Shown here in pieces: positions 6,678-36,800 of a stretch of 64,000 bases of DNA. This stretch comes from Clostridia bacterium (GTDB lineage Bacteria; Bacillota; Clostridia; UBA1212; UBA1255), in NCBI GenBank assembly GCA_017620915.1, contig JAFZSK010000014.1, positions 2,712-66,711 on the forward strand. The letters run 5' to 3'. Under the pieces are notes generated by a model, which worked only from the letters and a program-made list of their open reading frames with translations, was not told the origin of the DNA and searched no databases. The first letter of the stretch is position 1. Every line of letters starts with the position of its first letter. A program made the position numbers and the translations under genes.

Positions 6678-6822
6678 TGTCAGCCACAATTCTATTTTTA
6701 GTTGATTGTGGCTGATGGATAGAAGGAGTGTGTCAGCCACAATCCGTCATTTTGCCAATTGTGGCTGATGGACAGAAGAAGTGCGTCAGCCACAATCCGT
6801 TGTTTTGCCAATTGTGGCTGAC
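6678..6822. repeat. Tandem palindromic repeat family A: 3 copies of about 53 bp, each TGTCAGCCACAAT-N14-ATTGTGGCTGA
   Basis: Read directly at 6678-6732, 6733-6785 and 6786-6822. The arms are perfect 11-bp inverted repeats. The array sits in the divergent intergenic region between the catabolic operon and the IclR gene. Confidence 0.9.
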
Positions 6823-8904: not shown

Positions 8905-10689
8905 CTATTCGACCACAGTCACTTTGACCGTAAAGCTGTGGGTGCCGGCGATCGTGACGTTGACCTCCGCCGTGCCCGGAGCGTGGGGGTAGATCAGGCC
9001 GCGCTGATTGAGCGTGATCACGGACGGGTCGGACACCTCGTATGTGACGGGGAAGTTGCGGGCAGAGATCATGTTGCCCTCGTTGTACGCCTCGCCCCAG
9101 CTGTGGTCGGAAAAGCGCACCAGCCCGCGGATCTGCTGCCGGTGGACGTCCGTCAGCGACAATGTATACTCCGCGATCACCGGCGTAAACTCCACCACCG
9201 TTCGGGGCGAGGAGCCCTGAAACTCGGAGAACGTCTCCCGGATGTACACTTTGAACTCGTTCTCGAAATTGCCGTAGCGTACGGTCACCCGGGTCTCACC
9301 GGTCTTGCCTTTGGTGTAGACGCGGTTGCCCTTTATCGAGATCAGCGAGCTGTCGTAGCCGGAGTATTTGATCTTTTTCGTGTCGTTCAGCGCATGGGCG
9401 CCCAGCATCGGATCCAGCCACACGAAAGAGACCGTGCCGTAATCCTCGTTTTTCTGGATCTCCACGATCTTGACGTTGGGGGCAATGCCGATCATCGGCG
9501 GATCGCTCTCCCGCTCCTGCAGGTAGCCTTCTTTCAGCACGCCGCGGGCGTTGGGGTCAATTGCCTCCGGCTCGCCGGTATACAGCTCCAGCTTCACAGG
9601 CTGGAAGGCGGTGGCCCATTTGCCCCAGTTGCCCTCGGCGCCGTCGCTGAACGCGTACCCCACGAACACCGGGTCCTTCAGCTGGATGTGGCCATCCGGC
9701 CGCCGTGCCACGCCCATATTGTGACAATACTGATACAGTCCCGTGCGCAGCAGCCCGGTCTGGCGGAACGTCAATCCGTCCTCCGACTCCAGTATAGCGA
9801 TCCCGCTCTGTGCCGAGAACCGGTGCTGGGTACAGAAACCGATGAACTTGCCCGCATCCTCTAAATACGCCACGTCGCAGGAGTCCTGGCTGTTGATCTT
9901 TTCGTATGCCTGCCCCCGGAACTCCAGCCGCGCGGGCCAGTCCTCCGCCGTGTCCGACGTGGACACATACACGAAATTGCCCTCGGGGCAGATCCAGGTG
10001 TAGTACATGTATAAAACGTCGTCCACGATCACAAAACTGGGCTCGCCGGCGCCGTAACTCAGGTCATATTCGTCGTAATAGATGATCGGGGCCGGATCGC
10101 CGCCCCAGCCGCTGCCGTTCCACTTTTCGTACGGGCCGTCCGCCGATTTGGAGCGGGCAACGAACACGTTATTGTTGACTCCGCCGTTCGTGCTGACAAT
10201 GGTGGAAGTGTAGCCTAAATAATAATACCCGCCGAAATACACCGCACCGGGATCGCAGCAGGAGAATTTGTCCATGGAATCCGCGCAGGGGACCAGTGTG
10301 ACTTTTTCGCCGCTGAAATTGACGCCGTCAACAGAATGCTTCACCGACAGCCAGTCCCACTCGCCGCCGTACCCGTTGGTGGAGAACCAGGCATCGCACG
10401 TGCCGTCCGCATAATACATGATCGTGGGGCCGTAGCGGTATCCGGCGGCGTCCACCGGCGGCGCGTATATAATGTTGGGCTCTCCGGCGGCGGTGACTCG
10501 CACATGGGTGTCCGGATCGGGGTCAATGGCCGGCAGCGTGTCCGTAAACAACGCCGGCGGCTTCGGTCCTTTGCGGCAGCCGGAAAACAGCAGCGGAAGA
10601 CACAAAGCAATGCACAGCACGAGGCAAAAAGCCCTGCGCAGTGCATTGCGGGTCAATATGCTTTTTTGCTTTTCAGCGTGCTTTCCCAT
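8905..10689 (-). CDS. Secreted lipoprotein of unknown function (possible glycoside-hydrolase-like beta-propeller) with C-terminal bacterial Ig-like domain
   Basis: Signal peptide with lipobox LLFSGC. Long Trp/Tyr/Gly-rich central region. C-terminal GTAEVNVTIAGTHSFTVKVTVV Big_2-like strand pattern. Function not assignable from sequence alone. Confidence 0.5.
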   Translation of the reverse strand: MGKHAEKQKSILTRNALRRAFCLVLCIALCLPLLFSGCRKGPKPPALFTDTLPAIDPDPDTHVRVTAAGEPNIIYAPPVDAAGYRYGPTIMYYADGTCDAWFSTNGYGGEWDWLSVKHSVDGVNFSGEKVTLVPCADSMDKFSCCDPGAVYFGGYYYLGYTSTIVSTNGGVNNNVFVARSKSADGPYEKWNGSGWGGDPAPIIYYDEYDLSYGAGEPSFVIVDDVLYMYYTWICPEGNFVYVSTSDTAEDWPARLEFRGQAYEKINSQDSCDVAYLEDAGKFIGFCTQHRFSAQSGIAILESEDGLTFRQTGLLRTGLYQYCHNMGVARRPDGHIQLKDPVFVGYAFSDGAEGNWGKWATAFQPVKLELYTGEPEAIDPNARGVLKEGYLQERESDPPMIGIAPNVKIVEIQKNEDYGTVSFVWLDPMLGAHALNDTKKIKYSGYDSSLISIKGNRVYTKGKTGETRVTVRYGNFENEFKVYIRETFSEFQGSSPRTVVEFTPVIAEYTLSLTDVHRQQIRGLVRFSDHSWGEAYNEGNMISARNFPVTYEVSDPSVITLNQRGLIYPHAPGTAEVNVTIAGTHSFTVKVTVVE

Positions 10690-11050
10690 ATTTTTCCACG
10701 TGTTTTTTGATGGCGTCGAAGGTCTTGTCGCTCAGATAGTGTTCGATGCGGCAGGCGTCTTCCGCGGCGGTCGCTTCGTCAACGCCCAGATCGGTGAACA
10801 GCCGGCTGAGCAGCTGATGGCGCTCGTAAATGTGTTTTGCCCGGTTTTCGCCCGCTTCGGTGAGCGAAATGAATCCCTGCGCGTCGGTGACCACGAGCCC
10901 GTCCTTTTTCAGCAGCCCCAGCGCACGGCTGACGGAGGGCTTCGAGTAGCCCATGTACGTACCGACGTCAATGCTCCGCACCGCCGTTGACTTCTGTGAC
11001 AACACATATATGGTTTCGAGGTACATTTCTCCGGATTCGCGTAAAGTCAT
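10673..11050 (-). CDS. DtxR/MntR-family metal-dependent transcriptional regulator (short form, no SH3-like domain)
   Basis: MTLRESGEMYLETIYVLSQ...SVSRALGLLKKDGLV HTH and dimerisation region typical of MntR/IdeR. Divergent from the feo operon. Confidence 0.85.
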   Translation of the reverse strand: MTLRESGEMYLETIYVLSQKSTAVRSIDVGTYMGYSKPSVSRALGLLKKDGLVVTDAQGFISLTEAGENRAKHIYERHQLLSRLFTDLGVDEATAAEDACRIEHYLSDKTFDAIKKHVEKYGKAR

Positions 11051-11203
11051 ACTGCTGCCTCCTCCGTCTGCCTGCGGTCAATGCTCGCCCGGCCGCGGTT
11101 TGCGGCCACGTTCCGGCTGTGATTGCCCGGCTGTCAACCGAAATTATAGCGTAAACAGCGGCAAGTTGCAAATGGCGGCCGGCGCTTCGCCTCCTTTTCT
11201 GTT

Positions 11204-11520
11204 TTCGTCAGCCACAAAGTGCAAAAGTCCCGAGTTGTGGCTGACACCTCCTTGTGATTCGTCAGCCACAAAGTGCAAAAACCCCGGGTTGTGGCTGACA
11301 CCTTCCGCTGATTCGTCAGCCACAAAGTGCAAAAGCCCCGGGTTGTGGCTGACACCTCCTTGTGATCCGTCAGCCACAAAGTGCAAAAACCCTGGGTTGT
11401 GGCTGACACCTTCTTGTGATTCGTCAGCCACAAAGCGCAATATTCCCGGGGTGTGGCTGACACCTCCTTGTGATTCGTCAGCCACAAAGTGCAAAAGTCC
11501 CGGGTTGTGGCTGACACAAT
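11204..11520. repeat. Tandem palindromic repeat family A-prime: 6 copies of about 61 bp (TCGTCAGCCACAAAGTGCAAAAGTCCCGGGTTGTGGCTGACACCTCCTTGTGAT)
   Basis: The arms GTCAGCCACAA / TTGTGGCTGAC are the same as in family A at 6678 but with a different 17-bp spacer. The six copies are more than 90% identical. They explain the repeat-derived ORFs 11134..11517 and 11144..11743. Confidence 0.9.
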
Positions 11521-11760
11521 TCTTCGCGGAGGCCGAAAAGATGAAAAGAAAGGGGTTTCGGCCTACGTCCATCCTTGTTGCGGAGGCCGAAAAGGTGGAA
11601 AGAAATGGTTTTCGGCCTACGCTCCGCCTCTTCGCGGAGGCCGAAAAGATGGAAAGTAAAGGGTTTCGGCCTACGCTCCACCTCTTCGCGGAGGCCGAAA
11701 AGATGGAAAATAAAGGGTTTCGGCCTCCATCATCGGCCTCCAAACATTTTTCAAAAAAGC
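11521..11760. repeat. Tandem palindromic repeat family B: 4 copies of about 60 bp (CGCGGAGGCCGAAAAGATGGAAAG.AAAGGGTTTCGGCCTACGCTCC)
   Basis: Each unit has GAGGCCGAAA ... TTTCGGCCTC inverted arms. The same family occurs at 32380-32690. Confidence 0.9.
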
Positions 11761-11762
11761 TA

Positions 11763-11791
11763 TTGACAAGTTAGCGGCGGCTAATTATAAT
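11763..11791 (+). promoter_or_regulatory. Consensus sigma-A promoter TTGACA-N17-TATAAT upstream of feoA
   Basis: TTGACA at 11763-11768, 17-nt spacer, TATAAT at 11786-11791. The first DtxR-like box overlaps the spacer. Confidence 0.6.
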
Positions 11792-11884
11792 ATACGACGG
11801 TTAGCGACAGCTAACCTATTATTACGATGAATGGTTAGCATAAACTAACCAATAATTACGACCAAAAGTTAGCAAAAGCTAACT
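11769..11884. promoter_or_regulatory. Array of four 18-bp DtxR/IdeR-like palindromic operators (GGTTAGC-N4-GCTAACC), phased about 34 bp apart
   Basis: Boxes at 11769-11786 (AGTTAGCGGCGGCTAATT), 11799-11816 (GGTTAGCGACAGCTAACC), 11833-11850 (GGTTAGCATAAACTAACC) and 11867-11884 (AGTTAGCAAAAGCTAACT). The half-sites resemble the DtxR consensus TTAGGTTAGCCTAACCTAA but have a longer centre. Confidence 0.65.
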
Positions 11885-11918
11885 CAATCGACACATATCA
11901 CGGGGAGGGCAGGAAAAC

Positions 11919-12131
11919 ATGATACCGCTCTGTTACGCAGAAACAGGACAGCCGCAGATCATAAAGAAGATCGGCGGCAATCCGGAGACCAGACAGCACC
12001 TGGAGAACCTCGGGTTCAACATCGGGGGAGAGGTCGTTGTCATCAGCACCCTGGGCGAGAACATGATCATCAAAGTCAAGGAATGCCGTGTTGCCGTCAG
12101 CGACGAGCTGGCGCGGAAAATAATGGTCTGA
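11919..12131 (+). CDS. feoA: Ferrous iron transport protein A (FeoA domain)
   Basis: 70 aa, SH3-like FeoA (..TGQPQIIKKIGGNPETRQHLENLGFNIGGEVVVIS..). GGGGAGGG RBS. Confidence 0.85.
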   Translation: MIPLCYAETGQPQIIKKIGGNPETRQHLENLGFNIGGEVVVISTLGENMIIKVKECRVAVSDELARKIMV

Positions 12132-12153: not shown

Positions 12154-12384
12154 TTGAAAACACTCAGAGACGTAAAAATCGGCGAGACCGCCACAGTTGT
12201 GAAACTTCACGGAGAAGGCGCGGTAAAGCGGCGCATCATGGACATGGGCATCACCCGGAGAACTAAAGTATACGTGCGCAAAGTTGCCCCGCTCGGCGAC
12301 CCCATCGAAGTCACTGTCCGGAATTACGAGCTCTCAATCCGCAAAGCGGACGCGGAAATGGTCGAGGTCGAAGAAACCGAGTGA
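12154..12384 (+). CDS. feoA: Second FeoA-domain protein (TTG start)
   Basis: 76 aa, LRDVKIGETATVVKLHGEGAVKRRIMDMGI.. FeoA fold. AAAGGAGG RBS 7 nt before the TTG. Confidence 0.8.
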   Translation: MKTLRDVKIGETATVVKLHGEGAVKRRIMDMGITRRTKVYVRKVAPLGDPIEVTVRNYELSIRKADAEMVEVEETE

Positions 12385-12411
12385 GCAGATAAGCAGAAAG
12401 GAAGCATTTTT

Positions 12412-14937
12412 ATGGACATCAGAATCGCCCTCGCGGGCAATCCGAACAGCGGTAAAACGACGCTATTCAACGCGTTGACCGGCTCCAACCAGTTCGTGGG
12501 CAACTGGCCCGGCGTCACCGTGGAAAAGAAGGAGGGCAAGCTGAAGAAGCACGACGGCGTTATTGTCACCGACCTGCCCGGCATCTACTCGCTCTCGCCG
12601 TACACGCTGGAAGAAGTGGTGGCGCGCAACTACCTCATAGGCGAGCGGCCGGACGCGATACTGAACATCGTTGACGGCACAAACCTGGAACGAAACCTGT
12701 ACCTGACCACGCAATTGACGGAGCTGGGGATCCCGGTGGTAGTCGCCATCAATATGATCGACATCGTTAAAAAGGAAGGCGACAAGATCAACACCGCGGA
12801 ACTGTCGCGCCAGATCGGCTGCCCCGTGATCGAGATCTCCGCGCTGAAGGGCACCGGTATAATGGAGGCTGCGGAAGCGGCCATTGACGCCGCGCAGAAC
12901 GGCAAGACCATACCGCAGCACAAATTCTCCGGCCCCGTGGAGCACGCGCTGGCGCATATTGAGGAGGCCGTTGTCCACGACCTGCCCGAAGAGCAGCAGC
13001 GCTGGTACGCGGTGAAGATCTTCGAGCGCGACGAAAAAGTGCTGGAATCGGTCAAACTGGATCCCGACACGCTGGCGCACATCGAGAAGGATATCCAGGC
13101 TGCCGAGACCGAGCTGGATGACGACGCGGAAAGCATCATCACCAACGAGCGCTACATCTACATCGCGGAAGTCATCAAGGCCTGCTATAAAAAGAAGAAA
13201 GAGAATCAGCTGACGAAGAGCGACAATATCGACAAAGTCGTCACCAACCGGTGGCTTGGTCTGCCGATCTTTGCCATCGTAATGTTCCTGGTGTACTACA
13301 TCGCGATGGTGACGGTGGGTACCGCGGCTACCGACTGGGCCAACGACGGCCTGTTCGGCGACGGCTACCATCTGTTCGGCATTGGGTCAAAAAAATACGA
13401 GACGAAAGTCGAAGATTACGAAGCCGCGGTCAACGCCCTCGCCGCGTTCGAATTTGACGTGGATACCGAGGCGGAGGATTTTGACGCGGACAAACTCGCA
13501 ACGAAGATACAGAGTTTCACCACGGACAAGACGTCTGCCGAAGTTGATGTAACGGATGATGAGACGCTGGAAGAGACGACGCTGACGGTATATTATGACA
13601 CGGTCCCCGCGGATGCCGATGAGGAAACCACTAACGCTATGACATTTAAAGAAGCGGTGGAATACTTCAAGGGCAGGGACTTCAGTTTCGACGAGCCGGA
13701 TCCCGCGGACGACGGCGTCTGGGTGCCCGGTGTTCCCGCGCTGCTGGATAAGCTGCTCCTTGATGCGAATGGCGATCCTAAAGTTCCCGACTGGCTGTAC
13801 GGCCTGATCCAGAACGGTATCGTGGCCGGCGTCGGCGCGGTGCTCGGCTTCGTGCCGCAAATGCTGGTGCTGTTCTTCCTGCTGGCGATCCTGGAGGGCT
13901 GCGGCTACATGGCGCGTATTGCCTTCGTGCTGGACCGTATTTTCAGAAGATTTGGTCTTTCAGGCAAATCCTTCATACCGATGCTCGTGGGTACCGGCTG
14001 CGGCATCCCCGGCATAATGGCCTCGCGAACGATAGAAAATGAACGCGACCGCCGTATGACAATTATGACCACCACGTTCATTCCCTGCGGCGCCAAACTG
14101 CCCTTCATCGCGATGGTGGCCGGCGCACTGTTCGGCGGGTCTGCGTGGGTATCCGTTTCCGCATACTTTATCGGCATGGCGGCGATCATCATCTCCGGTG
14201 TGATGCTTAAGAAGACCAAGCGATTCGCGGGCGATCCCGCGCCCTTCGTAATGGAACTTCCGGCGTACCATCTGCCTACACTGAAAAACGTGCTGCGTTC
14301 CACCTGGGAGCGCGGCTGGTCCTTCATCAAAAAAGCCGGCACGATAATCCTGCTTTCCACTATTGTAGTCTGGTTCACGTCGTACTTCGGCTGGGTCGAC
14401 GGTTCGTTCCGGATGCTGGCGGAAGAGGAGATGGGCAACTCGATCCTGGCTTACATCGGCAAAGGCTTCGCCTGGCTCTTCGCACCGCTCGGCTGGGGCA
14501 ACTGGAAAGCTGCGGTCGCGTCCGTCACCGGACTGGTGGCCAAGGAAAATATTGTCGGTACGATGGGTATCCTGTACGGCAACTGGGCCGGCATTGCCGC
14601 CTCGTTCGCAACTAAATTCGCGGGCTTCTCGTTCCTGGTGTTCAACCTGCTCTGCGCCCCGTGCTTCGCGGCGATCGGCGCTATCCGGCGCGAGATGAAC
14701 AGCGCGAAGTGGACGTGGTTCGCGGTAGGCTATCAGTGCGGTTTCGCGTATGCGATCGCGCTCATGATCAACCAGTTCGGCAATCTGTTTACCGGCAAAC
14801 TCGCTTCCGGCGCCGGAGCCGCGGTCAATGTGATCAGTCTGATCGTTGCCTTCGCGGTGCTGGGTCTGATGATCTACATGTTGTTCTTCCGCAAATATAA
14901 GGAGGCAACGAAACTCACTCAGACTGTCAAAGTCTGA
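12412..14937 (+). CDS. feoB: Ferrous iron transporter FeoB (unusually long, 841 aa, with a large acidic insertion)
   Basis: N-terminal G-domain (IALAGNPNSGKTTLFNALTG ... DLPGIYSL), a GDI-like region and a polytopic C-terminal membrane domain. About 140 aa of D/E-rich sequence is inserted near residues 300-440. Confidence 0.9.
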   Translation: MDIRIALAGNPNSGKTTLFNALTGSNQFVGNWPGVTVEKKEGKLKKHDGVIVTDLPGIYSLSPYTLEEVVARNYLIGERPDAILNIVDGTNLERNLYLTTQLTELGIPVVVAINMIDIVKKEGDKINTAELSRQIGCPVIEISALKGTGIMEAAEAAIDAAQNGKTIPQHKFSGPVEHALAHIEEAVVHDLPEEQQRWYAVKIFERDEKVLESVKLDPDTLAHIEKDIQAAETELDDDAESIITNERYIYIAEVIKACYKKKKENQLTKSDNIDKVVTNRWLGLPIFAIVMFLVYYIAMVTVGTAATDWANDGLFGDGYHLFGIGSKKYETKVEDYEAAVNALAAFEFDVDTEAEDFDADKLATKIQSFTTDKTSAEVDVTDDETLEETTLTVYYDTVPADADEETTNAMTFKEAVEYFKGRDFSFDEPDPADDGVWVPGVPALLDKLLLDANGDPKVPDWLYGLIQNGIVAGVGAVLGFVPQMLVLFFLLAILEGCGYMARIAFVLDRIFRRFGLSGKSFIPMLVGTGCGIPGIMASRTIENERDRRMTIMTTTFIPCGAKLPFIAMVAGALFGGSAWVSVSAYFIGMAAIIISGVMLKKTKRFAGDPAPFVMELPAYHLPTLKNVLRSTWERGWSFIKKAGTIILLSTIVVWFTSYFGWVDGSFRMLAEEEMGNSILAYIGKGFAWLFAPLGWGNWKAAVASVTGLVAKENIVGTMGILYGNWAGIAASFATKFAGFSFLVFNLLCAPCFAAIGAIRREMNSAKWTWFAVGYQCGFAYAIALMINQFGNLFTGKLASGAGAAVNVISLIVAFAVLGLMIYMLFFRKYKEATKLTQTVKV

Positions 14938-14987: not shown

Positions 14988-15167
14988 ATGAAATGGTTTG
15001 CGGACAATGCGGTCACGCTCATCACGGTTGCCGCCGTCCTGGCGCTGGTGGCGCTGGCAATATGGTCGCTGATCCGGAGCAAAAAGCACCGCCCCACCTC
15101 CGGCGGTTCCGGCTGCTCCGGGAACTGCGCCTCCTGCGGCGCGGGCTGCCCGTATTGTAAAAAATAG
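14988..15167 (+). CDS. FeoB-associated Cys-rich small membrane protein (59 aa; absent from the ORF track)
   Basis: MKWFADNAVTLITVAAVLALVALAIWSLIRSKKHRPTSGGSGCSGNCASCGAGCPYCKK: one TM helix plus a C-terminal CxGxCxxCxxxCxxC cluster. GAAAGGAG RBS. Located immediately downstream of feoB. Confidence 0.7.
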   Translation: MKWFADNAVTLITVAAVLALVALAIWSLIRSKKHRPTSGGSGCSGNCASCGAGCPYCKK

Positions 15168-15182
15168 TCGGGTCTGACTGTT

Positions 15183-15227
15183 ATTCGGCCTCCGCTGCGC
15201 AGGGACGCCTTGCAGCGGAGGCCGAAC
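15183..15227. terminator. Bidirectional intrinsic-terminator hairpin (15-bp perfect stem TTCGGCCTCCGCTGC / GCAGCGGAGGCCGAA)
   Basis: Lies between the convergent feo operon and the surface-protein gene. The GC-rich stem was read directly. The flanking T-tract is weak. Confidence 0.55.
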
Positions 15228-18270: not shown

Positions 18271-18436
18271 CAAGGGCATTTTGATTCCGTCGAGCTGACG
18301 ATAAATAATTAGTACAGGATAATCCTATCGTACAAAAATGCGGATTCCGCATTTTTGGCTAATAAGACCTGCTGGTGGAAGAGTGAACTATGGTGAACCG
18401 AAGGGACATTTAAAAAAGGAAAGGAGCTGCCTCAAA

Positions 18437-22352: not shown

Positions 22353-22463
22353 TCTTATAACGGCTGTTAAAACAGGGACGGTGTTCAGGCAGCCTTTTCT
22401 TTTTGTTTTTTCCGTGGTTATATAGTGAAAAGGCAGTTGGGAATACTTCCGGCGCCATGGGTG

Positions 22464-22775
22464 GTATCCCTAATTTAGAAATATGAAAAACGGGATACCG
22501 CCAGCGCTCCGAACGGTATCCCTAATTTAGGTATATGTAAAATTAGGATACCGCCAACGCTCCGAGTGGTATCCCTAATTTATGGATATGGAAAAACGGG
22601 ATGCCGCCAGCGCTCCGAGCGTTATCCCTGATTTCGGTATATGAAAAATCGGGATACCGCCAGCGCTCCGAGTGGTATCCCTAATTTAGAGATATGGAAA
22701 AACGGGATACCGCCAATGCTCCGAGCGGTATCCCTGATTTAGAAATATGGAAAATCGGGATACCGTCAATGGATT
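22464..22775. repeat. Tandem palindromic repeat family C: 6 copies of about 52 bp (GGTATCCCTAATTTAGAAATATGGAAAAACGGGATACCGCCAGCGCTCCGAGC)
   Basis: Arms GGTATCCC / GGGATACC separated by about 21 nt. Six copies are phased 51-53 bp apart upstream of the GH2 gene. Confidence 0.9.
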
Positions 22776-32379: not shown

Positions 32380-32690
32380 TAATTGAGTTTTGGCCTCCGC
32401 TCTTTCTCATTGCGGAGGCTACAATCTCAAAATAGAGGAGTTTCGGCCTCCGCTTCAGCTCATTTGGGAGGCCGAAATCATTAAAAAAAGGAATTGCGGC
32501 CTCCGCTTCAGCTCGTTTGGGAGGCCGAAATCATGAAAAGAAGGAATTGCGGCCTCCGCTTCAGCTCGTTTGGGAGGCCGAAATCATGAAAAGAAGGAAT
32601 TGCGGCCTCCGCTTTAGCTCATTTGGGAGGCCGAAATCATGAAAAGAAGGAATTGCGGCCTCCGCTAGTGGTGGCCGCTTGTTTTTCAGG
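32380..32690. repeat. Tandem palindromic repeat family B-prime: about 5 copies of about 61 bp (GGAGGCCGAAATCATGAAAAGAAGGAATTGCGGCCTCCGCTTCAGCTCGTTTG)
   Basis: Same arm motif (GGAGGCCG / CGGCCTCC) as family B at 11521. Lies upstream of the beta-helix lipoprotein gene. Confidence 0.9.
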
Positions 32691-36293: not shown

Positions 36294-36394
36294 ATTATCT
36301 TCCCACTCCTTAGATGTAGGTTTTGTTTCCCCATGATTATATCGCAGACGTACTGCTTAAATCAATCGCTATGCAACTGGCACTGCCGACATCT

Positions 36395-36800
36395 AGCAAA
36401 AGTGGGAAATTTGGCGGTTTGCTAGACGTGGGCGCCTTCTCTCACTTTTAGGAGCAGCGGGATTTTCGCGAGCGTCTAGCAAAAGTGGTCAAATATAGCG
36501 GTTTGCTAGACGCGGGCTCCTTCTCTCGCTTTTAGGAGTAGCAGGATTTTCGCGAGCGTCTAGTAAAAGTGGTCAAATCAGGTGATTTGCCAGATGCAGG
36601 CTCTTTCTTCCCCTTGAGAAGCAGTAATAATCACAATCATCGTCTAGCAAATCACGAAAAGCAACCGTTTTGCTAGAAGCAGGAGCTTTAACAGTATTGA
36701 AAATGAGCGAGAATTGTAACTGTCGTCTAGCAAATCATAAAGAACAGCCGATTTGCTAGACGCAAGCACTCTTTCTGCTTGCAAAATGGGAATAATCAGT
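36395..36800. repeat. Tandem palindromic repeat family D: 5 copies of about 84 bp, each with GTCTAGCAAA-N20-TTTGCTAGAC
   Basis: Example: CGTCTAGCAAAAGTGGTCAAATATAGCGGTTTGCTAGACG. The array sits in the divergent region between the GH109-like and DUF3737 genes. Confidence 0.85.

Follow-up and report, generated by a model that had tools for sequence, protein, structure and literature searches.

Metal-dependent repressors of the DtxR family that act through palindromic operators placed over a promoter are a well-known type of regulatory system, and the geometry by which they recognise DNA is known as well. In DtxR and IdeR, an ancillary metal site is formed by His79, Glu83 and His98 together with ligands from the SH3 domain. 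The E. coli MntR box reads ATAGC-N4-GCTAT, and MDR1 of Archaeoglobus fulgidus is a DtxR-family repressor with three neighbouring operators at a metal-transport promoter, whose motif, metal and spacing differ from those of the locus described here. Crystal structures of IdeR on DNA have revealed that each subunit reads one CCTAA quintet and that the dimers take quintets 1+3 and 2+4; IdeR also binds a single quintet pair as one dimer, and the consensus has been restated as the 14-bp sequence TTAGGNNNNCCTAA (PMC8464063). Within the quintet, IdeR Ser37 and Pro39 contact the thymine at position 3, and Gln43 is hydrogen-bonded to base 1, a cytosine (PMC8464063).

Dimers of Bacillus subtilis MntR occupy 18-bp sites, and at the mneP promoter four of them are arranged on four such sites across 84 bp (PMC11882963; PDB 9c4c). 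The sulfur ligands at the primary site of IdeR raise its selectivity for Fe(II), while MntR has Asp/Asn and Glu at these positions; according to the same review, the low-GC Gram-positives use DtxR-family proteins for manganese only (PMC10317159).

Here, we describe an array of four palindromic boxes upstream of feoA-feoA-feoB in 64,000 nucleotides of DNA from a Clostridia bacterium; this whole stretch is referred to as the window. Sequence comparison suggests that the four boxes are very probably operators of the neighbouring two-domain DtxR-family protein, which would repress feo with Fe(II). The features of the locus are given below; the bit scores of the boxes come from a weight matrix that was built from relatives only, with the window left out.

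10673-11050, minus strand: DtxR-family regulator gene, 125 aa (Pfam PF01325 and PF02742)
11143-11172, minus strand: possible regulator promoter TTGCAA-17-TATAAT, 10/12 consensus match, putative function
11763-11791, plus strand: feo promoter, -35 TTGACA at 11763-11768, 17-nt spacer, -10 TATAAT at 11786-11791, 12/12 consensus match
11769-11786, no strand assigned: box 1, AGTTAGCGGCGGCTAATT, inside the promoter spacer, 21.1 bits
11799-11816, no strand assigned: box 2, GGTTAGCGACAGCTAACC, spanning the predicted start at about +1 to +19, 23.5 bits
11833-11850, no strand assigned: box 3, GGTTAGCATAAACTAACC, about +36 to +53, 24.0 bits
11867-11884, no strand assigned: box 4, AGTTAGCAAAAGCTAACT, about +70 to +87, 28.1 bits, the top score of the 64 kb window
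11902-11909, plus strand: predicted ribosome-binding site GGGGAGGG, 9 nt ahead of the feoA start codon (11919)
11919-12131, plus strand: feoA, first copy, 70 aa (Pfam FeoA, E 6.6e-13)
12154-12384, plus strand: feoA, second copy, 76 aa (Pfam FeoA, E 7.4e-20)
12412-14937, plus strand: feoB, 841 aa (Pfam FeoB_N, Gate, FeoB_Cyto and FeoB_C)
14988-15167, plus strand: FeoB-associated Cys-rich membrane protein, 59 aa (Pfam PF12669, E 4.9e-10)

The feoB product matches TIGR00437 with 542 bits, over the cut-off. Transcription of the feo genes would start around 11797-11799, about 7 nt past the -10 element. Regulator and feo genes are divergent, with 868 bp between the regulator and feoA start codons because two 54-bp tandem arrays intervene; the regulator, described as adjacent in the first-pass annotation of this DNA, is therefore a neighbouring divergent gene at some distance. 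A weight-matrix scan found no autoregulatory box between 11050 and 11762, and so none at the regulator's own promoter, unlike in several relatives, which do carry boxes on the regulator side.

All four boxes follow the 18-bp palindromic consensus R-GTTAGC-N4-GCTAAC-Y (n = 4). Direct reading of the sequence bears out two claims of the first-pass annotation, namely that four DtxR-type palindromes precede feoA-feoA-feoB, and that one of them overlaps a perfect TTGACA-N17-TATAAT promoter: all 12 of 12 promoter positions match, and the 16-nt core of box 1 takes up spacer positions 2-17. Two further statements need to be narrowed. The 18-bp motif that it proposed, GGTTAGC-N4-GCTAACC, matches box 2 exactly but not the other three, since boxes 1 and 3 each deviate at one core position, and the outer positions of boxes 1 and 4 are A/T. 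It had also called the boxes phased at about 34 bp; the start-to-start spacings returned by a repeat finder are 30, 34 and 34 bp, which correspond to 2.86 and 3.24 turns at 10.5 bp per turn, and the four boxes thus do not all lie on one helix face.

With up to two mismatches allowed, GTTAGC-N4-GCTAAC has four matches in the 64 kb window; these are the four boxes, clustered within 115 bp, and their whole-window count alone is not significant, as 13 of 100 shuffles reach four. Scored with the relatives' weight matrix, the four boxes reach 21-28 bits against 12.6 bits for the next-best site, and the same scan detected no further regulon members in the 64 kb window. The 12.6-bit site, AATTAGTACAGGATAATC at 18307-18324, is probably a chance match.

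Beyond the window, 80 loci (573 kb) with relatives of the regulator at 58-74% identity were analysed, mostly from genome bins of rumen or gut Clostridia, among them Lachnospiraceae and Oscillospiraceae. Across these 573 kb the motif occurs 162 times with at most one mismatch, compared with 0-2 occurrences in block shuffles that keep the local composition. The divergent regulator/feo layout, located by tblastn with the window proteins, is found in 48 of the 80 relatives, and the intergenic region of every one of these 48 divergent loci contains the motif, in 1-5 boxes and most often 2 or 3. A weight matrix built from 137 boxes in 49 loci reads R-GTTAGC-N4-GCTAAC-Y, with TTAG and CTAA conserved to more than 95% and the central four positions free. 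The promoter arrangement recurs, too: the window and 25 of 48 related loci have the composite cTTGACA-(A/G)-GTTAGC-N4-GCTAAC-TATAAT, in which the box forms the spacer of a near-consensus promoter, with a -35 element TTGAC(A/G) followed in the related loci by one base, the box and TATAAT, while in the remaining related loci the first box begins a few bases past the -10 element. The closest relatives with flanking DNA (L081 and L085) have regulators that are 84% identical, the same module, three boxes and an intergenic region of about 200-280 bp. The conserved motif, its position at the promoter and the divergent layout support the earlier assignment of the boxes as DtxR-family operators through which the neighbouring regulator controls feoAAB.

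Boxes occur elsewhere in the relatives, ahead of a flavodoxin-DUF3793 gene pair (L057:2640-3896, with the box behind the promoter), Fur-family genes, feoA/feoB paralogues and an ABC ATPase. The Fur-like ORFs with a box encode 77-78 aa and cover the N-terminal part of the Fur-family domain (L019:6989-7304 and L040:881-1141). The flavodoxin and Fur-like targets hint at a wider iron-sparing regulon and at a link to Fur-like proteins, and since the flavodoxin-DUF3793, Fur-family and feoB-paralogue targets fit an iron regulon, they support iron as the metal. Of 37 relatives, 20 have an additional box in the gap that separates the second feoA from feoB, often after a terminator-like GC hairpin with a T-run (for example L001:3284-3299, L003:3250-3265, L043:3486-3501 and L076:1659-1674). 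This suggests that feoB has an entry point under its own regulation; no such box is found in the window, where the 27-bp gap at 12385-12411 holds a ribosome-binding site only. In several relatives the motif also appears, with one or two mismatches, about 175 nt inside the regulator coding sequence (L012:1515, L015:4176, L017:4176, L023:4176 and L032:250), which may be either a chance product of the coding sequence or a site within the gene; the window has no match at that position.

The distances between boxes in the related loci fall into two classes. Intervals of 28-31 bp separate the spacer box and its successor in 23 of 24 cases, and this distance places the second box on the transcription start. 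Intervals of 33-36 bp (29 cases) all lie between later boxes and never include the spacer box; their linkers are AT-rich and share only 36% mutual identity, which means that the distance is conserved and the sequence is not. The first-pass annotation had considered a four-site array unusual. This is true in so far as 2-3 boxes are the usual number, but 4-5 boxes occur in about one locus in six of this clade, and the four MntR dimers at mneP provide a precedent (PMC11882963). What remains mildly unusual is the conserved period of 34±1 bp.

Box 2 and box 3 of the window form, with their linkers, two 34-bp units that are 74-76% identical, and both resemble the single unit of box 2 plus CATTATTATG in L081. 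Because the closest relatives have three boxes and the window units resemble each other, the fourth box is a lineage-specific tandem duplication of the 34-bp unit made up of box 2 and its linker. This raises the alternative that function is confined to boxes 1 and 2, and that boxes 3 and 4 are neutral by-products of replication slippage, the intergenic region being prone to repeats. The resemblance of the units extends into the linkers and points to recent duplication, two 54-bp tandem arrays lie in the same intergenic region and several more in the window, and the closest relatives with flanking DNA have one box fewer. Against neutrality, a third box at 34-36 bp is kept across relatives whose AT-rich linkers are unrelated (36% identity), arrays of four or five boxes with the 34-bp period arose independently in L046 and L063, and box 4 is the top-scoring site of the window. 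The alternative is, on balance, somewhat unlikely: conservation of a third box and the repeated expansion by 34-bp units argue against neutrality of box 3 and, less strongly, of box 4. The fourth box may yet be a neutral recent duplicate.

At the other extreme, the 34±1 bp period, re-created in at least three lineages, could reflect a higher-order cooperative assembly, and the clade could supply gut and rumen Clostridia with a main iron sensor, at odds with the view that Firmicutes reserve DtxR-family proteins for manganese. We consider this ambitious proposal unlikely. Were it true, SH3-less IdeR-like dimers would cooperate by DNA distortion, by wrapping or through contacts that are absent from IdeR and MntR, and would provide a steep iron switch.

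The regulator itself matches PF01325 with 41.5 bits and PF02742 with 60 bits, both over the cut-offs, which places it in the DtxR family. Pfam finds no SH3-like C-terminal domain in it, and the protein stops at residue 125. At least 8,000 significant homologue candidates exist, and the named ones among the matches listed read only 'metal-dependent transcriptional regulator'. The predicted monomer (pLDDT 88.7) overlays the DtxR, IdeR and MntR structures with TM scores of 0.8-0.87; for DtxR and MntR the values are 0.84-0.87, at an rmsd of 1.5-2.1 A. In an alignment to DtxR, Met9, Cys100, Glu103 and His104 correspond to Met10, Cys102, Glu105 and His106, so that the primary metal site of IdeR/DtxR is present, and at the DNA-reading positions Ser36 and Pro38 correspond to Ser37 and Pro39, and Arg42 to Gln43. 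These seven residues (M9, C100, E103, H104, S36, P38 and R42) are invariant in 22 homologues. The ancillary site is kept at His78 alone, the positions of Glu83 and His98 being Ser82 and Ala96; with these ligands and the SH3 domain missing, activation cannot proceed exactly as in IdeR. With sulfur ligands of the IdeR type and no SH3 domain, the regulator most likely senses Fe(II) and acts as a repressor, joining an IdeR-type ligand set to a two-domain frame like that of MntR. 'MntR-sized', as the first-pass annotation had it, is thus apt for the architecture (two domains, 125 aa) and misleading for the metal ligands, which are of the IdeR and not of the MntR type.

That the regulator is instead an MntR orthologue that answers to Mn(II) by repressing a Feo-type transporter through the boxes is quite improbable. 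Its top NCBIfam match is the E. coli-type MntR PRK11050, its two-domain build and size are MntR-like, and its E12 and H78 align with the MntR ligands E11 and H77. Manganese is also the metal that the DtxR-family proteins of Firmicutes are said to serve (PMC10317159). However, the equivalog scores stay far under the MntR cut-offs (86.3 bits against 153 for PRK11050, and 60 against 138 for PRK03902), and the NCBIfam cut-off for the DtxR equivalog is likewise not reached. The ligands that define MntR, Asp/Asn in place of Met10 and Glu in place of Cys102, are absent; the regulator has Met9 and Cys100 there, and Met and Cys occupy these manganese-defining positions in 22 of 22 homologues. Moreover, the boxes stand before feoAAB, flavodoxin and Fur-family genes and not before mntH or mntABC. 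An iron-sensing DtxR-family clade in Clostridia, as favoured here, would be a modest exception to the manganese-only statement of the review.

How the boxes would be read can be judged from the described DtxR-family sites. It is important to point out that the spacing TTAGC-N4-GCTAA is identical to that of the one-dimer IdeR/DtxR site TTAGG-N4-CCTAA. The first-pass annotation had seen an unusual 6-nt centre with 5 extra bp and, by implication, a different dimer geometry; this reading arose because GGTTAGC had been matched to the inner portion of the 19-bp DtxR box. It is not supported, as an N4 spacing is that of the published one-dimer IdeR site (PMC8464063). A new dimer geometry was rejected for this reason and because the monomer model overlays both DtxR and MntR. 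The weight matrix of 137 boxes contains no conserved second quintet pair in the central N4 or in the flanks, as a four-quintet 19-bp box would.

A close match is the one-dimer IdeR site in the nuo promoter of Saccharopolyspora erythraea, which consists, like the boxes described here, of inverted 5-bp quintets with 4 bp between them (PMC8464063). The thymine at quintet position 3, the Ser/Pro pair that contacts it and the Met/Cys/Glu/His primary site are common to both systems. They differ at quintet base 1, which in IdeR is a cytosine read by Gln43 and here a guanine in combination with Arg42; an arginine opposite this guanine would fit direct reading by the regulator. The locus further differs from the IdeR system in having no overlapping second dimer site, no SH3 domain and two ancillary ligands fewer, in its arrays with a 34-bp period, and in its host, which belongs to a Clostridia lineage and not, as for IdeR, to the Actinobacteria. 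The classical 19-bp DtxR/IdeR box, TTAGGTTAGSCTAACCTAA, belongs to the same TTAG/CTAA quintet family and overlaps iron-uptake promoters. It amounts to two interleaved one-dimer sites with an offset of 5 bp, and carries two dimers on opposite faces (PMC8464063), whereas the boxes of the window would be separate one-dimer sites.

The regulator and its boxes also have the two-domain build and the 18-bp site per box that characterise MntR. B. subtilis MntR at mneP is equally a two-domain protein on four 18-bp sites, one of them over a promoter element, and the folds agree with a TM score of 0.86. The mneP sites, however, abut (about 21 bp apart, with dimer-dimer contacts), lie upstream and activate an exporter with Mn(II), while the boxes of the window are 30-34 bp apart, lie in and downstream of the promoter in a repressor layout, and belong to a protein with Fe-type ligands. 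Streptococcus mutans SloR, a DtxR-family repressor, resembles the present system in having several neighbouring sites at a metal-transport promoter and differs from it in motif, metal (Mn) and spacing (PMC12096823).

These comparisons suggest the following mechanism. When Fe(II) is plentiful, a metal-loaded homodimer would sit on each box, one dimer per box, with each winged-helix subunit reading one GCTAA quintet and N4 separating the two quintets of a box. Box 1 in the promoter spacer and box 2 over the predicted start would jointly exclude RNA polymerase from the sigma-70-type promoter, while boxes 3 and 4, in the first ~90 nt of the leader, could serve as roadblocks or provide extra occupancy. 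Under iron scarcity, the apo-protein would come off and feoA-feoA-feoB and the gene for the FeoB-associated protein would be transcribed. Repression is here preferred over activation on the grounds of operator position, and any cooperativity between the dimers would be an addition to this scheme. The spacings of 30 and 34 bp do not amount to complete turns of the helix, so it is not evident that adjacent dimers could touch directly. A literature search found no report on binding, metal response or expression for the regulator or its close relatives.

Since boxes 2-4 are transcribed, they could instead act mainly as RNA, as three 7-bp leader hairpins (a 5'-terminal stabiliser, a weak attenuator or the site of an RNA-binding factor), with the DNA palindrome being secondary; this is highly improbable, as box 1 has the same sequence and lies upstream of the predicted start, and many relatives have boxes on the regulator side and at non-transcribed positions. 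The leader does fold into exactly the three box hairpins (-29.7 kcal/mol, z = -5.0), the window's box 2 plus tail is flagged as terminator-like, about 15 relatives have a T-run 2-6 nt after box 2, and there is covariation between positions -1 and +16 of the outer flanks (odds ratio 3.7, p = 0.005, uncorrected for relatedness). Yet it is the base sequence that is kept (TTAG and CTAA at more than 95%), where a stem would tolerate compensatory changes. Among ~100 deviations from the palindrome there are 2-3 double changes and the rest are one-sided; at the inner pair, too, the deviations are one-sided (C-A 15, A-G 13, T-A only 2), as independence would predict. One-sided deviations are expected of a protein site and not of a base-paired stem. 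Rfam gave no family match in the scanned region 10900-12100. A hairpin role of the transcribed boxes could nevertheless exist alongside their role as operators.

The tails of box 2 differ between loci: L003, L007, L008, L011, L034, L035 and L065 have 5-9 T within 2-6 nt, and there the palindrome resembles a weak terminator or a 5'-terminal hairpin. No T-run was seen after the last box in the relatives, and the tail of box 2 in the window is just TATTATTA.

The literature search found no paper on this motif, on this regulator clade or on a characterised DtxR-family regulator of feo in Clostridia; an earlier in silico description is possible, as the regulon database RegPrecise lay outside the search. 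The window boxes reveal no new mode of DNA recognition. Mildly unusual is the combination of an SH3-less Fe-type sensor in Clostridia with operator arrays of a 34-bp period. The value of the locus lies in the concrete operator R-GTTAGC-N4-GCTAAC-Y and the promoter design that it provides for a large, unstudied clade of DtxR-family regulators from Lachnospiraceae and Oscillospiraceae of the gut and rumen. It suggests that ferrous-iron uptake in these anaerobes is under the control of an IdeR-like sensor on an MntR-like two-domain frame, and bears on how metal selectivity and domain architecture combine in the DtxR family, as well as on the prediction of iron regulons in microbiome genomes.

Tandem arrays with a period of 53/54 bp and 2-6 copies are found at several places in the window (6705-6821, 11204-11517, 11521-11726, 22461-22769 and 32436-32666, and also 36392-36608). 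Each unit contains an 8-11 bp inverted repeat with a loop of 15-20 nt, and the stems differ between arrays while the period is kept (GTCAGCCACAA/TTGTGGCTGAC, GGAGGCCGAAA/TTTCGGCCT and GGTATCCC/GGGATACC). The array pair at 11204-11726 widens the regulator-feoA gap from ~200 bp in relatives to 868 bp in the window. Long ORFs of 199-273 aa run across the 54-bp arrays (10953-11774 on the plus strand and 11144-11743 on the minus strand); only a repeat period divisible by three keeps them open, and they are most likely not genes. Directly after the gene for the FeoB-associated protein, at 15184-15226, lies a hairpin with a 15-bp stem, TTCGGCCTCCGCTGC ... GCAGCGGAGGCCGAA, without a T-run, and its stem sequence GGAGGCCGAA/TTCGGCCTCC is common to the arrays at 11521-11726 and 32436-32666.
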